Assembly (NCBI GenBank): GCA_943354045.1
Contig: CALRBF010000002.1
Location: 1 to 58,725 of the forward strand
Source of the DNA: Parcubacteria group bacterium
Lineage (GTDB): Bacteria > Patescibacteriota > Minisyncoccia > SW-4-49-11
Length of the DNA stretch: 58,725 bases
Direction of reading: 5' to 3'
Below the pieces are notes generated by a model. The model was not told the origin of the DNA. It searched no databases and was given only the letters and a program-made list of their open reading frames with translations. The position numbers and the translations under genes were made by a program. This document shows positions 9,341 to 33,278 of the stretch, one piece after another. Each line of letters begins with the position of its first letter. Position 1 is the stretch's first letter.

Positions 9341-11077
9341 ATGGCTAAAAGAGAATTAATTCGTATATATAACCTTGAGAAACATTATGGACTCAAGGTT
9401 ATATTTAATACTGCTACTTGCTCTATTCATGAGGGAGAAATTTATGGTGTACTTGGTCGCAATGGAGCGGGGAAGAGTACCTTATTTCGTATGATTTTGG
9501 GACTAGAAGACCCAGATGATGGAAGTATTACTTTAGATAAATCTACTCGCATTGGCTATATTGCCCAAGAAGATGAATTTGATTTAGAGCAAACAGGAAT
9601 TAATTATTTGATAGAGACTACGCAAAGTCAAGATTGGGAAATATTCAAACAAGCCCTAGAATTCGATATGCCAAAAGAAAAATTAGAGCTTCCTATTGGG
9701 GATATTTCGGGGGGATATCGTATGCGATTAAAGCTTATTCGAATGTTAATGGCAAAGCCAAATCTCATACTTTTGGATGAGCCGACCAATTATCTTGATC
9801 TTTCCACTATTCTTTTATTAGAACATTGGCTTATATCCTTTAAAGGAACAGTATTATTGATTACTCATGATAGAGAATTCCTCCGACGAGTAATGACCAG
9901 CACCATAGAAGTTGATCAGGGACAAATATCTTTGTATCCTGGCAATGTAGATGAGTATTTTGAATATAAGCAAACAGTACAGAACCAAATTATCCGTACC
10001 AATGCTAATATTGAGAAAAAGCAAGCCCAATTACAAGAATTTATAGACCGATTTGGAGCAAAGGCAAGTAAAGCCGCTCAAGCTAAATCCAAGCAAAAAC
10101 ATATTGAGAGATTATCTCAGGAGAAAAAAAGTATATATACCCCCAGCTCAAAAGTAAGAATGCATTTGCCTTTTATTGCCAAAAGTTCAGGTATGGGATT
10201 AGATATACCTCGTATCAGTATTGGATATGATAAAACGATAATCGCAGAGGGTCAAAATCTATATGTAGAAAGAGGGCAAAAAATTGCTGTACTCGGAGAT
10301 AATGGACAAGGAAAATCTACACTTTTGAAAACTCTCTCTGCTGAATTACCTCTATTAAATGGTGAATTTAAATTTGGGAATGGACTCAAAATTGGATATT
10401 TTGCCCAAAGTGTAGAATTCGATACCCAAAATCAGTCTACTATTTATGATTATTTGAGAAAAGTTGCAGATATATCCATCAGCGATGATGATGTCAAAAG
10501 AACTCTTGGAAGTTTCTTATTCTCTAAAGCAGAACATGATAAGCCACTCACCGTATTATCAGGAGGGGAAAAGGCAAGATTGCGACTCGCAGCAGTATTC
10601 CTGGAAGGATATGATGTCTTAATTTTGGATGAACCTACAAACCATCTCGATATGGAAACTGTAGAAATTATGGGAAGTTCCCTAGCAGAATGGGGAGGAA
10701 CTCTTATTTTTGTGAGCCATGATAGAAGTTTTGTCAATAATCTTGCAACTATGATTTGGCAAGTAAAAGACGGCGCCATCACCAAATATAATGGGAATTA
10801 TGAAGAATATGTATGGAGCCTACAGCATCATGCTGATCAGACTAAAGAGCAGAATACCGAAGCCATTACTCAAACCGTATCTACCTATGCCGGAGATGAG
10901 AAAACGCGTAAAAGAGAATTATATCAAGCTCGCAAAGAATTAAATAAAATAGATAAAAAAATTGCGGACTTAAAAGAAGATGTAAGACTAGGAATAGCAG
11001 AATCATCTCAAAAACTCGCAACACAAGAGGCTCTCTGGGTAAAAGTTATGGATTCGATAGAGCATTTAGAATCCTAA
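9341..11077 (+). CDS. ABC-F family ATPase (two ABC domains, no TM domain)
   Basis: Two Walker A motifs (GRNGAGKST, GDNGQGKST), two signature/Walker B sets (SGGYRMRL..LLDEPTNYLD; LSGGEKARL..ILDEPTNHLD) and a coiled-coil tail. Confidence 0.9.
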   Translation: MAKRELIRIYNLEKHYGLKVIFNTATCSIHEGEIYGVLGRNGAGKSTLFRMILGLEDPDDGSITLDKSTRIGYIAQEDEFDLEQTGINYLIETTQSQDWEIFKQALEFDMPKEKLELPIGDISGGYRMRLKLIRMLMAKPNLILLDEPTNYLDLSTILLLEHWLISFKGTVLLITHDREFLRRVMTSTIEVDQGQISLYPGNVDEYFEYKQTVQNQIIRTNANIEKKQAQLQEFIDRFGAKASKAAQAKSKQKHIERLSQEKKSIYTPSSKVRMHLPFIAKSSGMGLDIPRISIGYDKTIIAEGQNLYVERGQKIAVLGDNGQGKSTLLKTLSAELPLLNGEFKFGNGLKIGYFAQSVEFDTQNQSTIYDYLRKVADISISDDDVKRTLGSFLFSKAEHDKPLTVLSGGEKARLRLAAVFLEGYDVLILDEPTNHLDMETVEIMGSSLAEWGGTLIFVSHDRSFVNNLATMIWQVKDGAITKYNGNYEEYVWSLQHHADQTKEQNTEAITQTVSTYAGDEKTRKRELYQARKELNKIDKKIADLKEDVRLGIAESSQKLATQEALWVKVMDSIEHLES

Positions 11078-15820: not shown

Positions 15821-16669
15821 ATGGAAAATAATAATTCACTTGCTATTTTTGAGACATATAAAATTCGTCGACATTTTAATCAAGATACAGAGACCTGGTA
15901 CTTTTCTATAATAGATATAATAGCAGTATTAACAGAACAGCAAAATTTCAAAAAAGCTCAAAGCTACTGGACTACATTCAAAAACAGATTAAAAAAAGAG
16001 GGAAGTGAGTTTGTCACAAAATGTGACAAACTGAAATTAGAATCAGCAGATGGAAAATTTTATAAAACCGATGTAGCAGATGTAGAGACAATCTTGCGAC
16101 TGATTCAATCAATTCCAAGTAAAAAAGCCGAGCCAATAAAACTGTGGTTAGCCAAAGTTGGATATGAGCGAATGGAAGAAATGACCGATCCAGAAAAAGC
16201 TCTGAATAGGTCTAGAGAATATTGGCAAAAACAAGGAAGAAGCCAAAAATGGATACAACAGAGAATGACAGGTCAAGAAACAAAAAATAAATTAACCGAC
16301 TACTGGGCTCAAAATGGTGTATCAAGTGGGGCAGAATTTGCAATACTCACCAATATTATACATCAAGAATGGAGTGATATCTCTATAACCCAACATAAGA
16401 AGTTAAAAAACTTAAAGACACAAAATCTAAGAGACCATATGAGTGAAGAAGAGCTAATATTTACAGCATTAGCAGAACTATCCACAAGAAAAATTGCCGA
16501 GACAGAACAAACACAAGGACTGGAAGAAAATAAAATCCCAGCAATAAAAGGAGGTAAAATTGCTAAAGATGCAAGAAAAGCATTAGAAGAAAAAACAGGA
16601 AAATCCGTAATAACTGGAGAAAATTATTTAGTAGATAATAAAACATCTTTAATTGATAAAAAGAAATAA
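15821..16669 (+). CDS. Bro-N domain protein (phage antirepressor-like)
   Basis: N-terminus ..LAIFETYKIRRHFNQDTETWYFSIIDIIAVLTE.. is typical of Bro-N. 282 aa. Confidence 0.65.
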   Translation: MENNNSLAIFETYKIRRHFNQDTETWYFSIIDIIAVLTEQQNFKKAQSYWTTFKNRLKKEGSEFVTKCDKLKLESADGKFYKTDVADVETILRLIQSIPSKKAEPIKLWLAKVGYERMEEMTDPEKALNRSREYWQKQGRSQKWIQQRMTGQETKNKLTDYWAQNGVSSGAEFAILTNIIHQEWSDISITQHKKLKNLKTQNLRDHMSEEELIFTALAELSTRKIAETEQTQGLEENKIPAIKGGKIAKDARKALEEKTGKSVITGENYLVDNKTSLIDKKK

Positions 16670-18297: not shown

Positions 18298-19163
18298 ATG
18301 AAAAATGAAATTATTTTATATAGACCAGATGATTTAGATGAGCATATAGAAGTAATGCTTAAACACGAAACTGTTTGGTTAAACAGACAGCAAATGGCTT
18401 CGCTTTTTGGTAGAGATGTGAAAACTCTTGGTAAACACATCAATAATGTTTTTTCGGAAGGAGAACTAGATAATATAGCAACTGTCGCAAAATTTGCGAC
18501 AGTTCAAAATGAAGGAGGCAGAAAGGTTGAGCGCCAAGTGGAGTATTACAATCTAGATGTTATAATATCAGTAGGGTACCGAGTAAAATCAAAACAAGGT
18601 ACACAATTTCGCATCTGGGCAACCAATATTTTACGAGACTATTTACTCAAAGGCTATGCACTGAATAATAGAATGAACAGAATAGAAGATAATATTCAAT
18701 CTTTGAGTGAAAAAGTAAATCAAATAGATTTACAAATACATACCAATACCATCCCAACCCAACCCAAGGAGTATTCTTTGAAGGACAAGTATTCGATGCC
18801 TATGAATTATTCTCAAAAATAATTCGCAAAGCCAAAAGTCATATAATCCTGATAGACAACTACATAGACGAGACCACCCTCATACATTTATCCAAAAAGA
18901 ACCCAAAAGTAAAAGCCCTCATATTAACCCATCCAATAAGCCAAGAATTAGAGCTAGATATACAGAAAGTCAATCAGCAATATGGAAACTTCAAAATAAA
19001 GAAATTTAATAAAAGCCATGATAGATTCCTCATCATAGATCAAAAAGAAATCTATCATCTCGGAGCCTCACTCAAAGATTTAGGCAAAAAACTCTTCGCC
19101 TTCAGTCTATTAGACACAAGTTCAGTACAAGATTTATTGAATAGAGTAAAAGATTTAGAGTGA
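18298..19163 (+). pseudogene. RhuM-family protein, frameshifted at a (CCCAA)3 tract
   Basis: N-terminal part ..VEYYNLDVIISVGYRVKSKQGTQFRIWATNILRDYLLKGY. The C-terminal part GVFFEGQVFDAYELFSKIIRKAKSHIILIDNYIDE...KDLE* is open in another frame up to TGA 19161-19163. Confidence 0.75.
18753..18767. repeat. Pentanucleotide tandem repeat (CCCAA)x3 at the RhuM frameshift point
   Basis: Three perfect units. Two units (or five) would put both halves of the gene in one frame (..IPTQGVFFEG..). Confidence 0.85.
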
Positions 19164-19498: not shown

Positions 19499-20101
19499 AT
19501 GAAAGGAGTAGTCTATATAATGACAACAGTAGTCGATGGACTAATAAAAATAGGACAAACAGGCAGTCAAAATTATCAAGAAAGGATGAGAAATCTAGAA
19601 TCAAATGGATACTACAATGTCTCAGGATTAAAGAGATTCTTTGCAATAGAACTAGAAGACTATACATATAAAGAAAATCTCCTCAAAGAAATTTTCACCA
19701 AACACAGAGTAGGAGACAGTGAGTTATTTGCCCTAGACTATGATTTGGTAAAACAATTACTCCTATCCTTTGAAGGAAAAGTAATATACCCAAAAGACAT
19801 AGATAAAGAAAAAGAATTCGATGAAATTTCAAAATCCAGAGAGCAAAGTGCAAAATTTAGTTTTTATAGAAAAGGCATACAAAATGGAGAAGAAATAGTA
19901 TTCATAGCAGATAAAGATATCACAGCAAAAGTCGTAGGCGAGAGAGATGTAGAATATGGAGGACAAGTTTTCAAACTATCCCCATTAACCCTAAAAATAT
20001 ATCAACAAAAAGGCAATAGCAATAAAAGTGGAGCCTATCACGGAGCAGCCTATTGGCAATATAAAGGTAAGAAGTTAAAAGATTTAATAGATATACAATA
20101 A
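19499..20101 (+). CDS. GIY-YIG / T5orf172 (MUG113)-domain protein
   Basis: GVVYIMT...GLIKIGQT...R...L N-terminal pattern. 200 aa. Directly upstream of hsdM. Confidence 0.6.
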   Translation: MKGVVYIMTTVVDGLIKIGQTGSQNYQERMRNLESNGYYNVSGLKRFFAIELEDYTYKENLLKEIFTKHRVGDSELFALDYDLVKQLLLSFEGKVIYPKDIDKEKEFDEISKSREQSAKFSFYRKGIQNGEEIVFIADKDITAKVVGERDVEYGGQVFKLSPLTLKIYQQKGNSNKSGAYHGAAYWQYKGKKLKDLIDIQ

Positions 20102-20158: not shown

Positions 20159-21670
20159 ATGGCACAAGGTCAAAATCCCCATTTTGAAGCACAATTATTC
20201 AAAGCAGCAGATAAATTGCGTAAAAATATTGATGCGGCAGAATATAAAAATGTAGCTCTTGGACTTATTTTTCTTAAATACATTTCAGAATCTTTTCAAG
20301 AACTTTATGACAAATTAGCTCAGGATGAATTCAGTGATCCAGAAGACAGAGATGAATATATTTCTGAAAATATTTTCTTTGTACCCGAACAAGCAAGATG
20401 GAAAAATCTCCAAGCTAAAGCAAAGCTCCCAACTATTGGACAGGAGCTGGATGATGCAATGGAAGCAATCGAGAAAGAAAATCCCGAGCTCAAAAATGTA
20501 CTCCCAAAAGTATTTGGAAAACCTAATTTAGATAAAGCCTCACTCGGACAGTTGATTGACCTTATTTCGAATACAGAATTACAAGTAGAGAATACCAAAT
20601 CCAAAGATTTATTTGGAAGAGTATATGAATATTTCTTGGGAGAATTTGCAAATGCTGAAGGGAAAAAGGGAGGACAATTCTATACCCCAAAATCTATTGT
20701 CAAATTGATGGTAGAAATGATAGAGCCATATAAAGGAAGAGTATATGATCCCGCATGTGGTTCTGGAGGAATATTTGTAATGAGTGAAAAATTTGTAGCA
20801 GAGCATCAAGGGAATATCAAAGATATAACTATTTATGGGCAAGAATCCAATCAAACCACTTGGAAGCTCTCCAAAATGAATCTTGCAATTCGCAATATTA
20901 ACTCGAAATTTGTCGAATGGAATACTGAGGGAAGTTTTCTCAAAGATACTCACCCAGATCTCAAAGCCGATTATGTAATCGCAAATCCTCCATTTAATCA
21001 ATCAGATTGGGGACAAGATATACTTCAAGACGATGCAAGATGGAAATATGGAATACCACCAGCAGGGAATGCAAATTTTGGATGGATACAACATATGCTC
21101 TATCATCTTGCACCCAATGGAGTAATGGCAACCGTACTAGCTAATGGAAGCCTCTCATCTAATACTTCCGGAGAAGGGGAAATTCGTAAAAATCTCATAC
21201 AAAATGATTTGGTAGAATGTATCGTCGCACTCCCAAAACAACTCTTTTATAATACCGGAATACCCGCATGTATTTGGTTTCTTCGTCGTGAAAGACAAAT
21301 AAGAAAAAATGAAATTCTTTTCATCGATGCCTCAGATATGGGATTCCTCAAAGACCGAGTACATAGAGAGTTTACCGAGGAAGATATGAATACCATATCA
21401 GAGACTTATCATAATTGGAGAAAAGACCCTGACCAATACGAGGATATTAAAGGATTTTGTAAATCAGCATCAAGAGCAGAAGTAGAGAAACATAATTTTG
21501 TTCTCACACCTGGTCGTTATGTAGGGATAAAAGATATAGAAGATGATGGGATACCATTCGAAGAGAAAATGTATAAACTCACCACCACTCTTGCCGAGCA
21601 ATTCGCCAAAGAAGAAAAAATGAATGCAGAAATCAAAAAACAATTAGCAAAAATTGGATTTGAAATTTGA
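20159..21670 (+). CDS. hsdM: Type I restriction-modification system methyltransferase subunit
   Basis: HsdM_N-like N-terminus, [18 protein letters not shown] (SAM binding), NPPF motif IV ([12 protein letters not shown]). Confidence 0.92.
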
Positions 21671-21680
21671 TTACACATCT

Positions 21681-22502
21681 ATGATACATAACATATTTGA
21701 AAATATTAGAAAAATCAATGAATATAATCAAGAATTTTGGTCTGCTCGGGATCTGTATAAATTACTTGGATATACAGAGTATGGAAAATTTTTACCAGCA
21801 ATAGAAAGGGCAAAAAAAGCTTGTAAAAATAGCAAACAAGAAGTAAATTTGCATTTCGCTCAGGTGAGCGAACCCCAAAAATCCCGCAACCAATACGGAG
21901 AAACTCAAGGTCAGATTTTGGAAGATTATCATCTTTCTCGTTATGCCTGTTATCTTATAGCTCAAAATGGAGATCCAAGAAAAGAAGAGATCGCATTTGC
22001 TCAAACATACTTTGCAATTCAGACAAGGAAGCAAGAGCTAAATGACGAATTTCTGGAAGATCATAAAAGAGTACTCCTCAGAGATGAGATGAAAGAACAT
22101 AATAAAAATCTTGCTAAAGCAGCAAAAGAAGCGGGAGTTGTGAATTATGCAAATTTTCAAGATTATGGATATATGGGACTTTATGGTGGAATGAGGCAAA
22201 GAGATATTTATACAAAAAAGAAATTAAAAGAAAAAGAAACAATACTTGATCATATGAATAGTGAAGAGCTTGCTGCAAATCTCTTCCGGGCAACGCAAGC
22301 TGAAGCTAAGCTTAAAAGAGAAAATATTATTGGACAAGAAAAAGCAAATCGAGCACATCTTGATGTTGGTAAAAAAGTAAGAGAAACAATTAGAGATCTT
22401 GGTGGAACAATGCCAGAAAACCTTCCAACACCTGATAATATTAGAGAATCAAAAAAGAGAGTAAAACAACTATCTAAGAAATTATTATCCAACAAAGAAT
22501 AA
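21681..22502 (+). CDS. DinD-like (DNA-damage-inducible protein D family) protein
   Basis: MIHNIFENIRKINEYNQEFWSARDLYKLLGY...YHLSRYACYLIAQNGDP. ATG 21681 is preferred over the TTG 21654 of the ORF track. Confidence 0.65.
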   Translation: MIHNIFENIRKINEYNQEFWSARDLYKLLGYTEYGKFLPAIERAKKACKNSKQEVNLHFAQVSEPQKSRNQYGETQGQILEDYHLSRYACYLIAQNGDPRKEEIAFAQTYFAIQTRKQELNDEFLEDHKRVLLRDEMKEHNKNLAKAAKEAGVVNYANFQDYGYMGLYGGMRQRDIYTKKKLKEKETILDHMNSEELAANLFRATQAEAKLKRENIIGQEKANRAHLDVGKKVRETIRDLGGTMPENLPTPDNIRESKKRVKQLSKKLLSNKE

Positions 22503-22503
22503 T

Positions 22504-23730
22504 ATGGCTGATACTACCTCATCTATACCAACAAAAAATTCCCCTCTTGAGGGGTGTCAGATGAAATCTGACGGGGTGGATTATCTTCCAAGCGATTGGG
22601 TAGAGACGACTTTGGGGGAGGTTGTAGAAACAGTAATTGATAATCGCGGAAAAAATCCAAGTTATTATACTGAAAAAGGTATTCCTGTAATTGATAATGT
22701 TTTAATAAAAGAAAATAGAAGAATTGATTTGAAAGAAGCTAGAAGATTTATAGATGATAATTTATATAATAATTTTATCCGTAAACACGGGGAAAGTAGT
22801 GATGTAATAATTACTTTAGTTGGTAATGGGTACGGGAATATTGCTTTATTTCCTAATGAAAAAAGTGTAATTATTCAAAATACAGTTGGATTAAGAGTAA
22901 ATAAAAAATCAGATAATTTGTTTTTGTATTATTTACTAAAAAAAGATAAGAAAAAAATATTAGATCTAAATATTGGTGCGGCACAGCCAAGTGTAAAAGT
23001 TGGAGATTTATTAAATATTAAATTTCTTCTCCCCCCTCTCCCTGAACAAAAAGCAATAGCCTCAATACTTAGTGCATTTGATGATAAGATTGAGCTATTG
23101 AGAGAGCAAAACAAAACCTTAGAAGAGATGGGACAGACAATATTCAAAGAATGGTTTGGGAAATATGGAGTAGATGATGAGCTACCCGAAGGGTGGAAAG
23201 TTGGGAAGTTGGGGGAAGAGTTAGTAATTAAACAAGGTAAATATCTTGAAGCAGAAAATTTATCAGAAGCTCCAACAGAAGAAAAAAAATATCCCATTTA
23301 TGGTGGTAGTGGTATTCGTGGTTATATAGAAGATTTTATGTATGAAAAACCTATGGTATTTTTGACTTGTAGAGGAAATGGCTGTGGTTTAATTCAGTTT
23401 TCAAAGGAACAATCAAGTATTACAAATTCTTGTATGGCTTTTGAAAATATAGATTCGCCATTAAGTTCAGAGTTTATTTATTTTTTATCAAAGAAAATTG
23501 ATTTTGAAAGTGTTACTTCTGGTTCAGCACAACCTCAAATTACAGTTACAAATTTGTATAATTTAGAAATAATTATTCCAGATCAAGAAACTTTGAAACA
23601 ATTTGACGAAGAAATAAAACCAATTTTTATAAAAATCAGAGACAATTCAGAACAAATCCAATCCCTCGCTCGTAGTCGTAATGAGTTGTTACCAAAGTTG
23701 ATGAGTGGAGCGGTGAGGGTTGAGTTTTAG
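22504..23730 (+). CDS. hsdS: Type I R-M specificity subunit
   Basis: Two target-recognition halves separated by LPPLPEQKAIASIL..DDKIELLREQNKTLEEMGQTIFKEWF, with a C-terminal ..LLPKLMSG. A possible alternative start is ATG 22561, because codons 12-26 are a repeat module. Confidence 0.88.
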   Translation: MADTTSSIPTKNSPLEGCQMKSDGVDYLPSDWVETTLGEVVETVIDNRGKNPSYYTEKGIPVIDNVLIKENRRIDLKEARRFIDDNLYNNFIRKHGESSDVIITLVGNGYGNIALFPNEKSVIIQNTVGLRVNKKSDNLFLYYLLKKDKKKILDLNIGAAQPSVKVGDLLNIKFLLPPLPEQKAIASILSAFDDKIELLREQNKTLEEMGQTIFKEWFGKYGVDDELPEGWKVGKLGEELVIKQGKYLEAENLSEAPTEEKKYPIYGGSGIRGYIEDFMYEKPMVFLTCRGNGCGLIQFSKEQSSITNSCMAFENIDSPLSSEFIYFLSKKIDFESVTSGSAQPQITVTNLYNLEIIIPDQETLKQFDEEIKPIFIKIRDNSEQIQSLARSRNELLPKLMSGAVRVEF

Positions 23731-23745
23731 TTTTTAAGGATAAGT

Positions 23746-24501
23746 ATGAAAATATCATCAAAAACAATAGATTACTTAAAAGATATTATTATTGGGGATT
23801 CTCAAAAAAGTCCTTATTTATCAGGACCTCAACTTGTAGAGTTTTTTAATGAGCTTGGGTGGCAAGATATATATGGGCAAGGATTCCCTGCGAGGTGGGA
23901 ATATACAAAGAGAAAATTGCTCGAATTAAATCAACTAGATAGGATTGAAGAAATAATAGAGTATTATTATAGTCCAATACACTTTATTGAAGATAAAGAG
24001 AGATATAAATATTTAATTAAAGAATTGAATGAATATCTTGCTTTTGATGACCTGGAGTTAGTTATAATGGGTAAAATAGTGAAATTAACTAAACAAACAA
24101 AAGAAATTGATATCATTTCAGAAGCAAGTTTTTCAGATAATACAATTTCCATTGTTCTACAAAAAAATGTGTTTGATCATGTGAAAACTTTACTTAATTC
24201 AGGGCATTATTATAATGCTGTGGAAGAATCTTATAAAATCGTGAGAGAAAAACTTAAATCTATTACTGGAGAAGAACAGGCACACAAGGCTTTCAAAGAA
24301 GATAATTGTGAAAAAATCTTTGGGCATGAGCCACAAAATGATGCAGAAAAAGATTTTTTTGAAGGAGTAAAATATCTACACATGGCAATTCAAAATTTAA
24401 GAAATGAAAAATCTCATACTCCAGCACAAGAATTAGATAAGAATTTAGCAATTCATTATATTGTTTTAGCAAGTTTAGCTTATGATTTGATAAATATATG
24501 A
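23746..24501 (+). CDS. TIGR02391-like protein with an N-terminal AbiJ-NTD-like region
   Basis: C-terminal ..LLNSGHYYNAVEESYKIVREKLK...YLHMAIQNLRNEKSHT... matches my recollection of the TIGR02391 signature (GHY..AV.E ... RN..(S/A)H). Confidence 0.55.
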   Translation: MKISSKTIDYLKDIIIGDSQKSPYLSGPQLVEFFNELGWQDIYGQGFPARWEYTKRKLLELNQLDRIEEIIEYYYSPIHFIEDKERYKYLIKELNEYLAFDDLELVIMGKIVKLTKQTKEIDIISEASFSDNTISIVLQKNVFDHVKTLLNSGHYYNAVEESYKIVREKLKSITGEEQAHKAFKEDNCEKIFGHEPQNDAEKDFFEGVKYLHMAIQNLRNEKSHTPAQELDKNLAIHYIVLASLAYDLINI

Positions 24502-25511
24502 AAGTAAAAGTAATTTTTGACACTAATATTATTAAAGATACTAACCCTGAGTCTTTTCTTGGTGGTAGAGTTGAGCTTCAAAAGTTTGCAGAAATAGCAG
24601 AAATTATTTTACCAGATTTAGTAATTGAAGAGTTAAAATGTCAAAAAAGAAAAGAGCTTGAAAAGAATAAGGGATTATTTTTGAAGAATCCTTTTCATTG
24701 GTTAAGAAATATCAATCAAGAAGATACGGAAAACTTTGATAATGAAGCCCATATTACGGAATTAGAAAACAAAGAAGATATAAAGTATACTATAATACAT
24801 TTAAAAAATCATTCAGTATTGGATCAAATAAAAGAGTTAGCAATTAATGAACTTCCACCATTTCAAACGGGTGGAAAAGGATTCAAAGATACTTATATCT
24901 ATTTTACAATTTTAGAATATTTACAAACTATACCAGATAAGTATGTTTTTGTATGTACAAAAGATAAAGTATTTCAAACAGCATTACAAAAACATCTAAA
25001 TATTAAAGTGATAGAAAACTTTGAAGAATTTGAAAAAAATATAGGTTTAAATATACCTAGTGAATACACTTTACAAGAAATTCAAGAATTATATGAGGGA
25101 ATTGAATATAGAGATAAGTGGTTAAATATTGAGAATAATTGGGTATTATCTTTTACAGAAAAAAATCATAAGAGGTTCATTTTATTTGATTCTGTAGCAA
25201 ATGAGATGATAGGTACTGTAGTATCTACACAAGATTTAAGTATATTATTAGCAGACTTAAATGAAGATAAATCGTATAATGATATGGGAATCTTCATAAG
25301 AGGATTAGAAAAATATTATTTATATTTTTCTAAAGATCATTTTTTACAAATATTACAAAGCTCAACAGATAATTATTGTATTTATAATTCTCAGATTGCG
25401 AGGGGAGAAATTAAAAAAATATTTAATAGAAATGATAATACCAAAAATTTTTTAAATACCACTGATGATTTATGGGAACAGTTTATTCAAAAGTATAATT
25501 TTCAATCATAA
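24498..25511 (+). CDS. PIN-like (DUF4935-like) domain protein
   Basis: N-terminus KVIFDTNIIKD..LPDLVIEEL is PIN-like. ATGA start/stop overlap with the upstream gene. 337 aa. Confidence 0.45.
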   Translation: MKVKVIFDTNIIKDTNPESFLGGRVELQKFAEIAEIILPDLVIEELKCQKRKELEKNKGLFLKNPFHWLRNINQEDTENFDNEAHITELENKEDIKYTIIHLKNHSVLDQIKELAINELPPFQTGGKGFKDTYIYFTILEYLQTIPDKYVFVCTKDKVFQTALQKHLNIKVIENFEEFEKNIGLNIPSEYTLQEIQELYEGIEYRDKWLNIENNWVLSFTEKNHKRFILFDSVANEMIGTVVSTQDLSILLADLNEDKSYNDMGIFIRGLEKYYLYFSKDHFLQILQSSTDNYCIYNSQIARGEIKKIFNRNDNTKNFLNTTDDLWEQFIQKYNFQS

Positions 25512-25531
25512 TATTACCTAATCACAACACC

Positions 25532-28500
25532 ATGACTACTCTCAATGAATCCCATATAGAACAGACCTTGATAGATATCCTTGTAGCTCAAGGCTATCAG
25601 TATTTTTATGGTCCAGATATTGCTCCGTATTCAGCTAATCCCCAACGAGAAAATTTTGATAGTGTGATCCTCGAAAATCATCTCAAGGAATCCCTCAAAA
25701 GATTAAATCCAGATATCCCTGAATCAGCAAGGCATGAGGCCTATCAGCATATTATGAATCTTGGCTCTTCTGATTTTATGGCAAATAATGAAAAATTTCA
25801 TAATTATCTAACTGATGGGATTACGGTTGAATACTTTAAAGATGAGGCTATAAAGGGTATCAATGTAAAGCTTCTTGATTTAGAGAATATTGCCAACAAT
25901 AGCTTTTGGGTAGTGAATCAATTTGTGGTAAAAGAACAAAATAATGAGAAGAGATTGGATGTGGTGATTTTCGTGAATGGGCTTCCATTAGTTGTGGTGG
26001 AATTAAAGAATGCAACTGATGAGAAGGCTACTTTGGAGAGGGCTTTTATGCAAATTCAGAATTATCAAAAAGCTATCCCAAGTATTTTTTATTATAATGC
26101 TTTATGTATTATCTCGGATGGGATTGAGGCGAAGGTTTCGAGTGTATCTGCTCCATTTAGTAGATATCTTGCTTGGAAATCTCCTGAGAAAGAGGAGAAT
26201 AACATTCCTGAAATGCAGATTATGGCTGAGAAAATGCTTGATAAAGAGGTTTTGCTTCGATTGATTCGATATAATACGGTTTTTGAACAAGAGGAGCAAA
26301 AGGATGAGAAGACGGGGTTATTATCTGTGGTAAAAATTAAGAAAATTGCGGCTTATCATCAATATTATGCGGTGGAAAAGGCGGTAAAGGAAACGGTGAG
26401 GGCTACTGATGAATCTGAGGGTAATAGGAAAATTGGGGTTATTTGGCATACTCAGGGTTCAGGGAAATCTCTTTCTATGGTGTTTTATACGGGGCAAATT
26501 GTGGTAGAGCCTGTGATGAAGAATCCAACTGTGGTGATTTTGACGGATAGGAATGATCTTGATGATCAACTTTTTACTACTTTTGGGAATTGTAAACAAT
26601 TATTGAGACAAACTCCTGTGCAGGCGGAGAATAGGGAACATTTGAAGGAATTACTGAAGGTTTCGGGTGGAGGTATTGTGTTTACGACTATTCAAAAATT
26701 TGCTCCTACTTCAGGAAATGTATATGAGATGTTATCTGAGCGGTCGAATATTGTGGTGGTAGCTGATGAGGCTCATCGGAGTCAATATGGATTCAAGGGT
26801 AGAGAGGTTGAGATAGAGGATGGTTCGGAGATTCGATATGGGAATGCGAAGTATCTGAGAGATGCTTTACCGAAGGCTTCTTTTATTGGGTTTACAGGTA
26901 CTCCTATTGAGAAGGAGGATAGGTCAACGCGTAATGTGTTTGGTGATGAAATTGATATTTATGATATTAAACAAGCGGTGGATGATGGGGCTACGGTTCC
27001 GATTAGTTATGAATCGCGTTTGGTAAAAATTCGATTGAATCAAGAGGTGGCAAGTCAGATTGATTATGCGGTGGATGAAATAGTGGGAGCAACACAGGAG
27101 CAAAAAGAAAAGGCGAAAAAGAAAAATGCTCAAATTGATGCTATTGTAGGGCATCCTGATAGGCTAAAGGATATTGCAAAAGATATTGTGGAGCATTTTG
27201 AGGCGAGGCAGCAAACCTTTGAGGGGAAGGCTATGGTAGTTTGTATGACGAGGCAAATTGCGGTGAATCTATATCGAGAAATTATTACTCTTCGTCCAGA
27301 ATGGCATAGTGATGAGTTGATGCAGGGGATGATTAAAATTGTAATGACTTCAAGTAGTGATGATCCTGAAAGTTTCCAATCTCATCATACGACGAAAGAG
27401 GATAGAAAAAAACTTGCCCTGAGGCTGAAGGATATTAATGATTCTCTTCAGATGGTGATTGTGCAATCTATGTGGTTAACGGGATTTGATGTGCCATGTC
27501 TCAATACGATGTATATTGATAAAAAGATGCAGGGTGCCAATTTGATGCAGGCTATTGCTCGGGTGAATCGGGTATATCGGGATAAACCAGGAGGACTTAT
27601 TGTTGACTATATTGGTATTGGGCAGGATCTCAGAAATGCGATGGGTGTCTATACGCAAAGTGGTGGCCAGGGAAAAGCTATTCTTGATATCTCGGAGGTG
27701 ATTGCGGGTATGAAGACTAAATTTGAGATTGTGGAGCAGATGTTCCATGGCTTTGATTATAAGCAATATTTTCAGGTTGAAAATAAGGAAAAATTACAGA
27801 TATTATTGGGAGCTTCAAACTTTATATTACGGGATGATAAGTTGAAGAATAGATTTCTTGCAGAAATTACGGCTTTGTCTCAATTATTTGCGATGGCGGT
27901 GCCAAGTTTTGAATCAGAACAAATACGAGATGAGGTGGCATTCTTTCAAGCGATAAAAGCTCGTATTAATAAATTCACTCCTAGTGGTGGTGTATCTGAT
28001 AGGCAGGTAGAAACGGCAGTAAGGCAAATTGTTGATGAGGCTTTAGCGAGTGATGGTGTGGTGGATGTGTTCGAAGCAGCAGGTATACAAACTCCTACTC
28101 TTGATATTTTGTCAGAGGAATTTTTGCTTGAGGTGAAGAATATGGAGCAAAAAAATATAGCTTTTGAATTACTTCGCAAACTTATTAATGATGAGGTGAA
28201 GGTGAGAAAAACAAAGAGTATAGCTCAAGGGAAAAAGTTTTCTGAGATGTTGGAACGGGTGATTAAAAAGTATCATAATAATCAAATTGATACGGCCCAG
28301 GTTATTCAAGAACTTTCTCAAATCGCTCGGGAGATGAAATTAGAGGATAGTAAAGCTGAGGAATTGGGATTATCTCCTGAGGAATATGCATTTTATTCGG
28401 TGCTCGCACAAAATGATTCCACAAGATTTTTGCAGGATGATAAGATGAAAGAGTTGATTCATGTTATCGTGGAGATTATTCGTAAAAATGCGACGGTTGA

Positions 28501-28651
28501 TTGGGAGAAGAGAGAGGATGTCAGAGCTAAACTTCGTCTTACGGTCAAAAAAATTCTAATCAGGTACGGGTATCCACCTGATCTCGCAAGAATAGAAGCT
28601 GATAAAGTTCTTGAGCAAAGTGAATTATTGGCTAAGGAGTTAACTCAATAA
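25532..28651 (+). CDS. hsdR: Type I restriction endonuclease subunit R
   Basis: N-terminal nuclease region (..DVVIFVNGLPLVVVELK), helicase motif I HTQGSGKS, DEAH box VVADEAHRSQ, QAIARVNR. 1039 aa. Confidence 0.93.
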   Translation: MTTLNESHIEQTLIDILVAQGYQYFYGPDIAPYSANPQRENFDSVILENHLKESLKRLNPDIPESARHEAYQHIMNLGSSDFMANNEKFHNYLTDGITVEYFKDEAIKGINVKLLDLENIANNSFWVVNQFVVKEQNNEKRLDVVIFVNGLPLVVVELKNATDEKATLERAFMQIQNYQKAIPSIFYYNALCIISDGIEAKVSSVSAPFSRYLAWKSPEKEENNIPEMQIMAEKMLDKEVLLRLIRYNTVFEQEEQKDEKTGLLSVVKIKKIAAYHQYYAVEKAVKETVRATDESEGNRKIGVIWHTQGSGKSLSMVFYTGQIVVEPVMKNPTVVILTDRNDLDDQLFTTFGNCKQLLRQTPVQAENREHLKELLKVSGGGIVFTTIQKFAPTSGNVYEMLSERSNIVVVADEAHRSQYGFKGREVEIEDGSEIRYGNAKYLRDALPKASFIGFTGTPIEKEDRSTRNVFGDEIDIYDIKQAVDDGATVPISYESRLVKIRLNQEVASQIDYAVDEIVGATQEQKEKAKKKNAQIDAIVGHPDRLKDIAKDIVEHFEARQQTFEGKAMVVCMTRQIAVNLYREIITLRPEWHSDELMQGMIKIVMTSSSDDPESFQSHHTTKEDRKKLALRLKDINDSLQMVIVQSMWLTGFDVPCLNTMYIDKKMQGANLMQAIARVNRVYRDKPGGLIVDYIGIGQDLRNAMGVYTQSGGQGKAILDISEVIAGMKTKFEIVEQMFHGFDYKQYFQVENKEKLQILLGASNFILRDDKLKNRFLAEITALSQLFAMAVPSFESEQIRDEVAFFQAIKARINKFTPSGGVSDRQVETAVRQIVDEALASDGVVDVFEAAGIQTPTLDILSEEFLLEVKNMEQKNIAFELLRKLINDEVKVRKTKSIAQGKKFSEMLERVIKKYHNNQIDTAQVIQELSQIAREMKLEDSKAEELGLSPEEYAFYSVLAQNDSTRFLQDDKMKELIHVIVEIIRKNATVDWEKREDVRAKLRLTVKKILIRYGYPPDLARIEADKVLEQSELLAKELTQ

Positions 28652-30829: not shown

Positions 30830-31039
30830 ATGAAAGAATATATTATATTTTTAGATGAATCTGGAGATCATAACTTAGTAAAGTATGATATTCAATATCC
30901 TATTTTTACTTTGGTAGGGTGTATTTTTGAAAAAGTATATTATGAGGAGCAAGTTATTGCTAAAGTAAATAAGCTTAAAATTAATCATTTTAATAATAAA
31001 AATACCATATTACATTCTTATGTCCTTTTTCTATATTAA
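30830..31039 (+). pseudogene. DUF3800-family gene fragment (N-terminal 69 aa only)
   Basis: MKEYIIFLDESGDHN.. is the DUF3800 N-terminal motif. The ORF stops far short of the family's usual length. Confidence 0.5.
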
Positions 31040-32810: not shown

Positions 32811-33278
32811 ATGCCAAAAAAAATACTAAATCAACAATCTTCATCGGAGCTTATCCAAGCTAGTACTGCCCAGTATCTAACCTTTGTATCTGCTAGTGGA
32901 GATGATTCAGAAAGTATAGAGGTTAGATATGAGGATGAAAATATCTGGATGACTCAAAAAATGATGGCTGAAATGTATGGGGTGTCTGTATCTGCAATCA
33001 ATCAGCATCTTAAAAAATTATTTGATGACAAAGAGATAAATAATTCAGTTATTAAGAAATACTTAATAACTGCCAGCGATAGTAAAAGTTATAATGCTAC
33101 TCATTATAATCTACAAGCTATTATTGCTATTGGGTTTAAGATAGAAAATGATAGAGCGGTACAATTTCGTAAATGGGCAAGACAAATAGTAAAAGATTAT
33201 ACTATTCAGGGTTGGGCTATGGATAGTGAAAGATTAAAAAAAGCTAATCAATTTGATAAAGAGTTTTTTGAAAGATAA
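32811..33278 (+). pseudogene. RhuM-like gene truncated after the N-terminal domain
   Basis: ..HYNLQAIIAIGFKIENDRAVQFRKWARQIVKDYTIQGWAMDSERLKK... then stops at 155 aa. Mosaic repeats lie on both sides. Confidence 0.55.

Follow-up and report, generated by a model that had tools for sequence, protein, structure and literature searches.

The window analysed here, that is, the whole stretch of 58,725 nucleotides (nt) of contig CALRBF010000002.1 (assembly GCA_943354045.1) from a Parcubacteria group bacterium, contains a type I restriction-modification (R-M) operon in which two overlapping open reading frames (ORFs), designated ORF-A and ORF-B, lie between hsdS and hsdR. The original prediction had interpreted them as an unnamed two-gene defence pair combining a sensor/adaptor with a nuclease. 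Both ORFs and their ATGA overlap are exactly as described there, and their location between hsdS and hsdR was confirmed by the Pfam match of the former and by the match of the latter to related loci. As for the pair itself, the comparative data speak against it: ORF-A and ORF-B are probably two independent single-gene nuclease modules that have come to share a cargo slot of the R-M operon. Indeed, each gene encodes a predicted RNase site of its own, and homologues of one are rarely found with homologues of the other.

Two kinds of RNases are found in toxin and defence contexts, the metal-independent HEPN enzymes with an Rx4-6H motif and the metal-dependent PIN enzymes with four acidic residues. 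In ORF-A, the segments GHYYNAVEE (amino acids (aa) 153-161 of the translation) and RNEKSH (aa 219-224), which had been associated with TIGR02391, lie within a TIGR02391 profile match at E=2.5e-27 (aa 138-250, 95.4 bits for a cut-off of 39.45), and Pfam Hypoth_Ymh (PF09509) matches as well at 6.8e-15 (55.4 bits for a cut-off of 25). In an earlier classification, Ymh is placed among the HEPN RNase families, its Rx4-6H motif being conserved (Anantharaman et al. 2013, PMC3710099). The motif is of the Rx4H form in ORF-A (R219-NEKS-H224), and R219, N220, K222 and H224, together with E161, are invariant in 39 homologues. The N-terminal part of PADLOC Stk2 matches aa 8-191 at 1.3e-13 and PADLOC AbiJ matches aa 13-223 weakly (E=3.8e-8, 31 bits), in line with the AbiJ-type N-terminal domain proposed originally. 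Because the AbiJ match is much weaker than the Ymh match, ORF-A was filed as AbiJ-like and not as AbiJ. AbiJ-NTD1 is a mostly helical domain of about 140 aa which is fused to Ymh, in proteins reported in operon with R-M genes, as well as to S/T/Y kinases and DUF4145 (PMC3710099). The N-domain of ORF-A can be described as AbiJ-NTD1-like, an indirect assignment made from the Stk2 match and these fusion partners and not from a dedicated NTD1 profile. A likeness of ORF-A to PD-Lambda-3_B (E=2.4e-4) was judged too weak to be retained.

The AlphaFold2 (AF2) model of ORF-A, with a predicted local distance difference test score (pLDDT) of 86.8, displays two domains, an N-domain from aa 1 to about 118 and the HEPN domain from about aa 138 to 250, and the sole stretch below 50 is the linker at aa 120-124. 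The model is helical over aa 5-99, continues into a small beta unit and is helical again over aa 140-250, where the Rx4H motif sits in helix 199-224. On Foldseek, the best relevant match of the C-terminal domain is the HEPN protein 2hsb (probability 0.89, target template modelling score (TM) 0.55), with a weak E of 0.7. Since Ymh/TIGR02391 is a HEPN RNase domain and its Rx4H motif is invariant here, ORF-A is a predicted effector and not only a sensor. Judged from its domains, it would be a self-contained protein uniting sensor and RNase rather than a mere adaptor. Thus, of the sensor/adaptor and nuclease combination proposed originally, the nuclease part stands, as a predicted function of the PIN domain of ORF-B described below, whereas an adaptor-only role of ORF-A is not supported, given its own HEPN Rx4H motif.

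ORF-A is also modular. When the window is compared with L001, its closest relative and a metagenome-assembled genome of Paceibacteria whose PIN protein is 88% identical to ORF-B, the N-domain is seen to be entirely swapped (positions 23746-24105 of the window and 9258-9608 of L001). The DNA homology, at 86%, resumes at nt 24106, in the interdomain linker, and extends from the HEPN domain through the PIN gene to hsdR. Among the ORF-A homologues, at least four different N-domains are joined to near-identical (70-80%) HEPN domains.

ORF-B begins with the PIN-like segments noted originally, VIFDTNII at aa 5-12 and EEL at aa 44-46 of the translation. It matches Pfam PIN_12 (PF16289, also known as DUF4935) at 5.4e-12 over aa 5-159 (46.9 bits for a cut-off of 32) and Pfam PIN_4 at 3.9e-5 (24.4 bits for a cut-off of 21.9), so that the PIN relationship of ORF-B, like the TIGR02391 relationship of ORF-A, is carried by profile matches above cut-off. 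The four acidic residues of the PIN site (D8, E45, D131 and D156) are invariant in 109 ORF-B homologues. The AF2 model (pLDDT 88.9) consists of the PIN domain from aa 1 to about 182, a four-stranded beta-meander (202-243) and a helical bundle (247-332). Foldseek retrieved structures 2fe1 and 1y82 for the PIN part, both at probability 0.98, and the best matches include VapC toxins. No structural match was returned by Foldseek for the C-terminal domain (aa 185-337), which falls in the stretch of about 200 aa in which the original prediction had recognised no motif. A sequence search of ORF-A and ORF-B against PDB chains gave chance-level matches only.

In order to situate this C-terminal domain, a profile of it was run against 1.84 billion cluster representatives and found 979 of them. 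Nine of the ten divergent matches that were checked have an N-terminal PIN_12 domain, and the tenth, a protein of 1115 aa, is a low-complexity artefact. Because the profile found the domain solely behind PIN_12 among the matches checked, it is considered private to the PIN_12 family, and the possibility of a reusable docking or sensor module was rejected on the same observation. No ATPase domain is present in ORF-B according to Pfam, NCBIfam and PADLOC, which give PIN matches only. A tblastn search of ORF-B against plasmid and phage collections gave no match, and one phage-metagenome protein has its two-domain fold.

Some homologues of ORF-B show features of their own. The PIN protein of a related operon, L122 (8753-9802, P0004), is a mosaic relative to that of the window: the C-terminal domain is near-identical, the first ~180 residues are far more diverged, and an 11-residue insertion precedes the GFKD motif, for an overall identity of 67%. 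With the corresponding domain in the remainder of the ORF-B clade, the C-terminal domain of the group formed by the window, L001 and L122 shares only 17-25% identity. On a Thermodesulfobacteriota chromosome (L040), two shortened PIN_12 copies of 248 and 264 aa are found at 1828-2574 and 9911-10705; one follows hsdS and the other lies about 7 kilobases (kb) downstream, beyond a reverse-strand ORF of 2112 aa. Furthermore, homologues P0037, P0053, P0135, P0136, P0140 and P0238 have W in place of a conserved G (for example FLWWR for FLGGR), and the hsd genes are all fragmented under translation table 11 in L006, L022, L038, L218, L219, L237 and L246. Together, the exchange of G for W and the chopped hsd genes point to hosts that would read UGA as sense, with a Gracilibacteria, Absconditabacteria or SR1-type code, rather than to pseudogenes.

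The genomic context of the PIN gene was examined in an ORF-B-seeded set of 41 genome loci from Patescibacteria, Bacteroidota, Gamma- and Zetaproteobacteria, Campylobacterota, Desulfobacterota and DPANN archaea. Here and in the sets below, contexts were scored by phmmer and hidden Markov model (HMM) searches with the window proteins on mechanically called ORFs, a scoring which diverged Hsd proteins or recoded genomes can escape. Type I hsd genes were detected in 40 of the 41 loci. The PIN gene also has a usual position: hsdS ends at most 30 nt upstream of its start in 30 of the 41 loci, the two genes overlapping in 9, usually by ATGA, and hsdR lies downstream in 38, immediately (at most 60 nt) in 21. 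A sister PIN_12 clade sharing the C-terminal motif S-x-S-F-x-x-T-H ... N-x-Q-I ... D-x-D-V served as control (80 loci, from a search with 5 sequences). In this clade hsd genes are detectable within 6 kb in only 4 of the 80 loci, compared to 40 of 41 for the ORF-B clade (Fisher p=3e-26). Moreover, pairwise PIN divergence goes along with the divergence of HsdR (r=0.68) and of HsdM (r=0.66; Mantel p≤5e-4) from the same loci; HsdM against HsdR gives r=0.97, and the rate of evolution of the PIN protein is about double that of the Hsd proteins. That some PIN-like genes are coupled to type I subunits had been noted in general terms in 2017; a PIN_12 clade restricted to R-M operons, with this fixed position, is not described in the literature searched.

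Such packed loci bear on the question of whether ORF-B could be a solitary VapC-like addiction toxin, which would stabilise a mobile R-M operon by post-segregational killing and not act in phage defence, its antitoxin being the C-terminal domain or an unseen RNA. This is unlikely in our view. PIN_12 does belong to the VapC structural group (PMC5499597), VapC toxins are among the best fold matches as seen above, and the operon is clearly horizontally mobile across phyla. However, since hsdR starts at most 60 nt downstream in 21 loci, most of them with an abutting hsdS upstream, there is no room for an antitoxin ORF, and no spare ORF is found beside the PIN gene in these loci. Type I R-M systems are, besides, already addiction-like by themselves, the nearby cargo genes are overwhelmingly anti-phage, and a PIN_12 protein, Cosus, gives experimental phage defence.

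The association between the two genes was examined from the ORF-A side as well, in an ORF-A-seeded set of 80 loci. Type I hsd genes are present in 38 of them. The neighbourhood analysis called for originally is answered in two ways: both genes are enriched near defence genes, being linked to type I R-M, whereas their homologues rarely co-occur, the outcome that the original prediction had itself named as refuting the pair. Indeed, an ORF-A relative is found in only 2 of the 41 PIN loci, L001 and L023, and a PIN gene in 2 of the 80 ORF-A loci, again the contigs of L001 and L023. The two genes are adjacent in no more than three operons, all of them closely related, namely those of the window, of L001 and of L122, in which an ORF-A homologue of 97% identity is paired with the 67% identical PIN protein through the same ATGA overlap. 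In L023 the genes are not adjacent: the ORF-A relative comes after hsdM and before hsdS, and the PIN gene is found behind hsdS. Full-length ORF-A homologues with the same N-domain and 72%, 66%, 61% and 46% identity are found in type I operons that have no PIN gene, and one of 55% identity, again with the same N-domain, is in a housekeeping context. The loci with such homologues and no PIN gene are L123, L125, L126-L128 and L133. The gene of 337 aa between hsdS and hsdR in L123 was considered as a diverged PIN homologue and rejected, as BLASTP and hhalign displayed no relationship.

An unbiased, though small, sample was obtained by seeding with the HsdR of the window, which gave 32 operons with hsdM through hsdR visible. 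Of these, 5 have the PIN gene, 3 have an ORF-A-type Ymh gene, and the L001 contig is the only one with both (Fisher p=0.41). Given the co-occurrence counts and the HsdR-seeded sample, the pair is regarded as a lineage-specific juxtaposition and not as a conserved module.

These comparative data largely refute the proposal that ORF-A and ORF-B form a dedicated two-gene module, with ORF-A as sensor, adaptor or antitoxin and ORF-B as nuclease effector, which we now hold to be very improbable. The proposal has in its favour the ATGA overlap, the adjacency kept in the three related operons and the fact that no Shine-Dalgarno-like motif comparable to that of ORF-A (AAGGA) can be read before the ATG of ORF-B, so that the start of ORF-B is compatible with translational coupling, on which its expression may depend. 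The two genes are also alike in their unusually low guanine-cytosine (GC) content, 23-28% over 23750-25500 compared to 34-41% in hsdM and hsdR, a value equally compatible with a separate acquisition of cargo genes. However, the ATGA junction is not specific to the pair: the PIN gene overlaps the upstream hsdS likewise in the 9 loci mentioned above, most ORF-B homologues begin with ATGA(A/G)A, and most PIN genes are coupled to hsdS in the same manner. Besides the low co-occurrence, the absence of association in the HsdR-seeded sample and the intervening hsdS of L023, the proposal has to accommodate an intact predicted RNase site in ORF-A itself and a partner in L001 that has a different N-domain.

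Other operons hold GmrSD, RhuM, Fic/DOC, PDDEXK_4, KwaB, DUF3800, DUF3644 (HEPN), Shedu SduA_C, DUF6119, McrBC or NTase_sub_bind genes between hsdS and hsdR, and because of this other cargo the hsdS-hsdR junction of this R-M family is described here as a cargo slot, in which the PIN clade is specialised for the end next to hsdS. Because only about 16% of the HsdR family (5 of 32 operons) carry the PIN gene, it is optional cargo and not an integral subunit. For this reason, and given its rapid evolution and a slot common to interchangeable defence cargo, we find it highly unlikely that ORF-B is a housekeeping or regulatory R-M part rather than an abortive-infection toxin, processing hsd mRNA for the subunit ratio or complementing HsdR as a DNA nuclease, even though its position right after hsdS is fixed, with overlap in 9 loci, it co-diverges with HsdR and HsdM, and some PIN-like domains act on DNA (PMC5499597).

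In the operons of the same HsdR family that have no PIN gene (L216-L266), the slot was seen to contain Shedu SduA_C, DUF6119, DUF3644, Fic, GmrSD, PDDEXK_4 and RhuM genes, together with several ORFs that have no Pfam match, such as L216 7401-8054. The junction between hsdM and hsdS is variable too: it is occupied by a DinD/Bro-N gene in the window (21654-22502), a RhuM gene in L001 (6917-7921) and a RhuM-Fic fusion in L122 (5744-6733).

From the domains, the conserved catalytic residues, the gene order and the co-occurrence statistics we infer how RNase activity, triggers, silencing by the R-M system and an anti-phage effect might be arranged. The junctions between subunit genes, above all that between hsdS and hsdR, take up accessory defence genes, and two unrelated single-gene modules probably sit here side by side. 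In ORF-A, the variable N-domain would sense a phage cue and release the HEPN RNase, which in turn would cut cellular or phage RNA and lead to abortive infection or growth arrest. ORF-B would be an RNase that depends on metal and is held in check by its C-terminal domain, by the R-M complex with which it is co-translated, or by both; failure or inhibition of restriction would set it free, as happens with PrrC in the EcoprrI locus. The adjacency and the ATGA overlap probably arose when ORF-A became inserted downstream of hsdS, ahead of a PIN gene that is habitually coupled to its upstream neighbour. ORF-A and ORF-B would thus be back-up RNases layered on the R-M system, neither needing the other. 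The PrrC-like guardian step proposed for ORF-B is the weakest link of this scheme, and we put it forward as doubtful, if possible. In more general terms it is a tentative suggestion that the R-M-restricted PIN_12 clade acts as a restriction guardian, the C-terminal domain docking on the HsdS/HsdM core, with co-translation ensured by the start/stop coupling to hsdS. This docking would silence the PIN RNase and would release it once a phage anti-restriction protein disables the enzyme.

Several observations weigh against the scheme of two independent defence modules and should be set beside it. The window, L001 and L122 all keep the pair adjacent and overlapping, so that an interaction specific to this lineage is possible. 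No model of PADLOC 2.0 or PHROGs matches ORF-B, and its defence role is therefore not independently catalogued. Host phylogeny could account for part of the correlation between PIN and Hsd divergence, and the share of HsdR-family operons with a PIN gene is low. Finally, the tight linkage between the PIN gene and R-M could be the result of an insertion-site preference rather than of functional coupling.

The features of the locus are given in the table. The genes hsdM, hsdS and hsdR form a single co-directional type I R-M operon, with intergenic gaps of at most 57 nt (between the T5orf172-domain gene and hsdM) and of at most 20 nt from hsdM to hsdR; some genes overlap. The gap between hsdS and ORF-A is 15 nt and that between ORF-B and hsdR 20 nt. 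An operon scan found no terminator-like site on the + strand between hsdM and the inside of hsdR. Promoter-like sites in the operon were fewer than the shuffled expectation, a scan which is uninformative beyond its compatibility with one operon.

Table. Features of the type I R-M operon and its cargo genes in the window (positions of the 58,725-nt stretch).
Feature	Coordinates	Strand	Description
T5orf172-domain gene	19499..20101	+	Pfam T5orf172 1e-6; PADLOC candidate PDC-S57 5.3e-55; directly 5' of hsdM; kept in L001
hsdM	20159..21670	+	matches hsdM of related loci at E about 0; those carry Pfam HsdM_N and N6_Mtase
DinD/Bro-N gene	21654..22502	+	NCBIfam DinD 2.7e-102; PADLOC candidate PDC-S13 1.2e-106; cargo between hsdM and hsdS
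hsdS specificity subunit	22504..23730	+	Pfam Methylase_S 1.2e-34
AAGGA Shine-Dalgarno-like motif	23736..23740	+	5 nt 5' of the ORF-A ATG; read from the sequence
ORF-A	23746..24501	+	251 aa; AbiJ-NTD1-like domain and Ymh/TIGR02391 HEPN domain
ATGA start/stop overlap of ORF-A and ORF-B	24498..24501	+	ATG 24498-24500, TGA 24499-24501
ORF-B	24498..25511	+	337 aa; PIN_12/DUF4935 domain and family-specific C-terminal domain
hsdR restriction subunit	25532..28651	+	48-89% identity to HsdR of 59 loci; Pfam domains read on a homologue

A T5orf172 gene adjoins the Ymh gene, or lies within about 1.3 kb of it, in 8 of the 80 ORF-A-type loci (among them L043-L046, L050, L058 and L077), and is directly upstream of it or overlaps it in L044, L045, L050 and L058, which hints at a recurrent association. 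Around the operon, decayed remnants of a defence island are found at 15821-16669, 18298-18822, 30830-31039 and 32811-33278. They consist of another Bro-N/DinD-like gene, a 69-aa DUF3800 fragment and two RhuM genes truncated to 174 and 155 aa (about 335 aa at full length). The operon itself is bordered by genes of housekeeping function (Dus, ABC-F, DEAD helicase, RNase Y and TruB).

The first consequence of this analysis is a correction: what seemed to be a sensor and its nuclease are probably two independent cargo genes, and treating them as a single system would mislead both annotation and experiments. The second is a lead, as a DUF4935/PIN_12 clade with an intact active site hardly occurs outside the hsdS-hsdR junction of a single type I R-M family. 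This clade is a concrete case in which restriction guardians of a second, PrrC-like class might be sought, and the junction itself is a place to mine for further defence genes. If the guardian hypothesis were true, the PrrC principle would reach an unrelated nuclease fold and extend to Patescibacteria, Bacteroidota, Proteobacteria and DPANN archaea.

Regarding known systems, ORF-A belongs, as an ordinary member, to a class that computational work described in 2013. It shares with the Ymh-AbiJ-NTD1 proteins of R-M operons the same domain pair, the Rx4H motif and the R-M context (PMC3710099), and nothing essential differs, the class itself being characterised computationally only. Like lactococcal AbiJ, it joins a variable N-domain to a C-terminal HEPN domain. 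However, its HEPN domain is far better matched as Ymh/TIGR02391 (2.5e-27) than as AbiJ (31 bits), and it lies inside an R-M operon whereas AbiJ stands alone on a plasmid.

For ORF-B, one parallel in organisation is PrrC, which is embedded in the EcoprrI type Ic locus, silenced by the enzyme and unleashed when the T4 protein Stp inhibits EcoprrI (PMC2610378, PMC12707154). An analogy with PrrC is also found in PMC3710099. Like PrrC (and RloC), ORF-B is a predicted accessory RNase whose gene lies inside a type I hsd operon and has no antitoxin gene beside it. In contrast, PrrC combines an ABC-ATPase with a HEPN-like tRNase, and ORF-B a PIN domain with an unrelated C-terminal domain and no NTPase. 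Because it has no ATPase domain and gives PIN matches only, ORF-B is at most an analogue of PrrC and not a member of its family. Within DUF4935/PIN_12, whose genes were described as 'usually mono-cistrons' of unknown function (Matelska et al. 2017, PMC5499597), ORF-B shares the two-region architecture and the four conserved acidic residues. The sister clade, with hsd genes in 4 of 80 loci, fits that description, whereas the ORF-B clade, with 40 of 41 loci in type I operons, does not. Cosus (Brc24), a PIN_12 protein encoded by a single-gene integron cassette, abolishes T7 plating, and mutants in its predicted PIN residues reduce protection more than 10^5-fold (bioRxiv 10.1101/2024.07.02.601719). 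A PIN_12 protein alone is thus able to block T7, ORF-B being likened to Cosus by family only and not by sequence. Taken as a whole, ORF-A and ORF-B fall within a known kind, that of accessory nuclease cargo in R-M operons.

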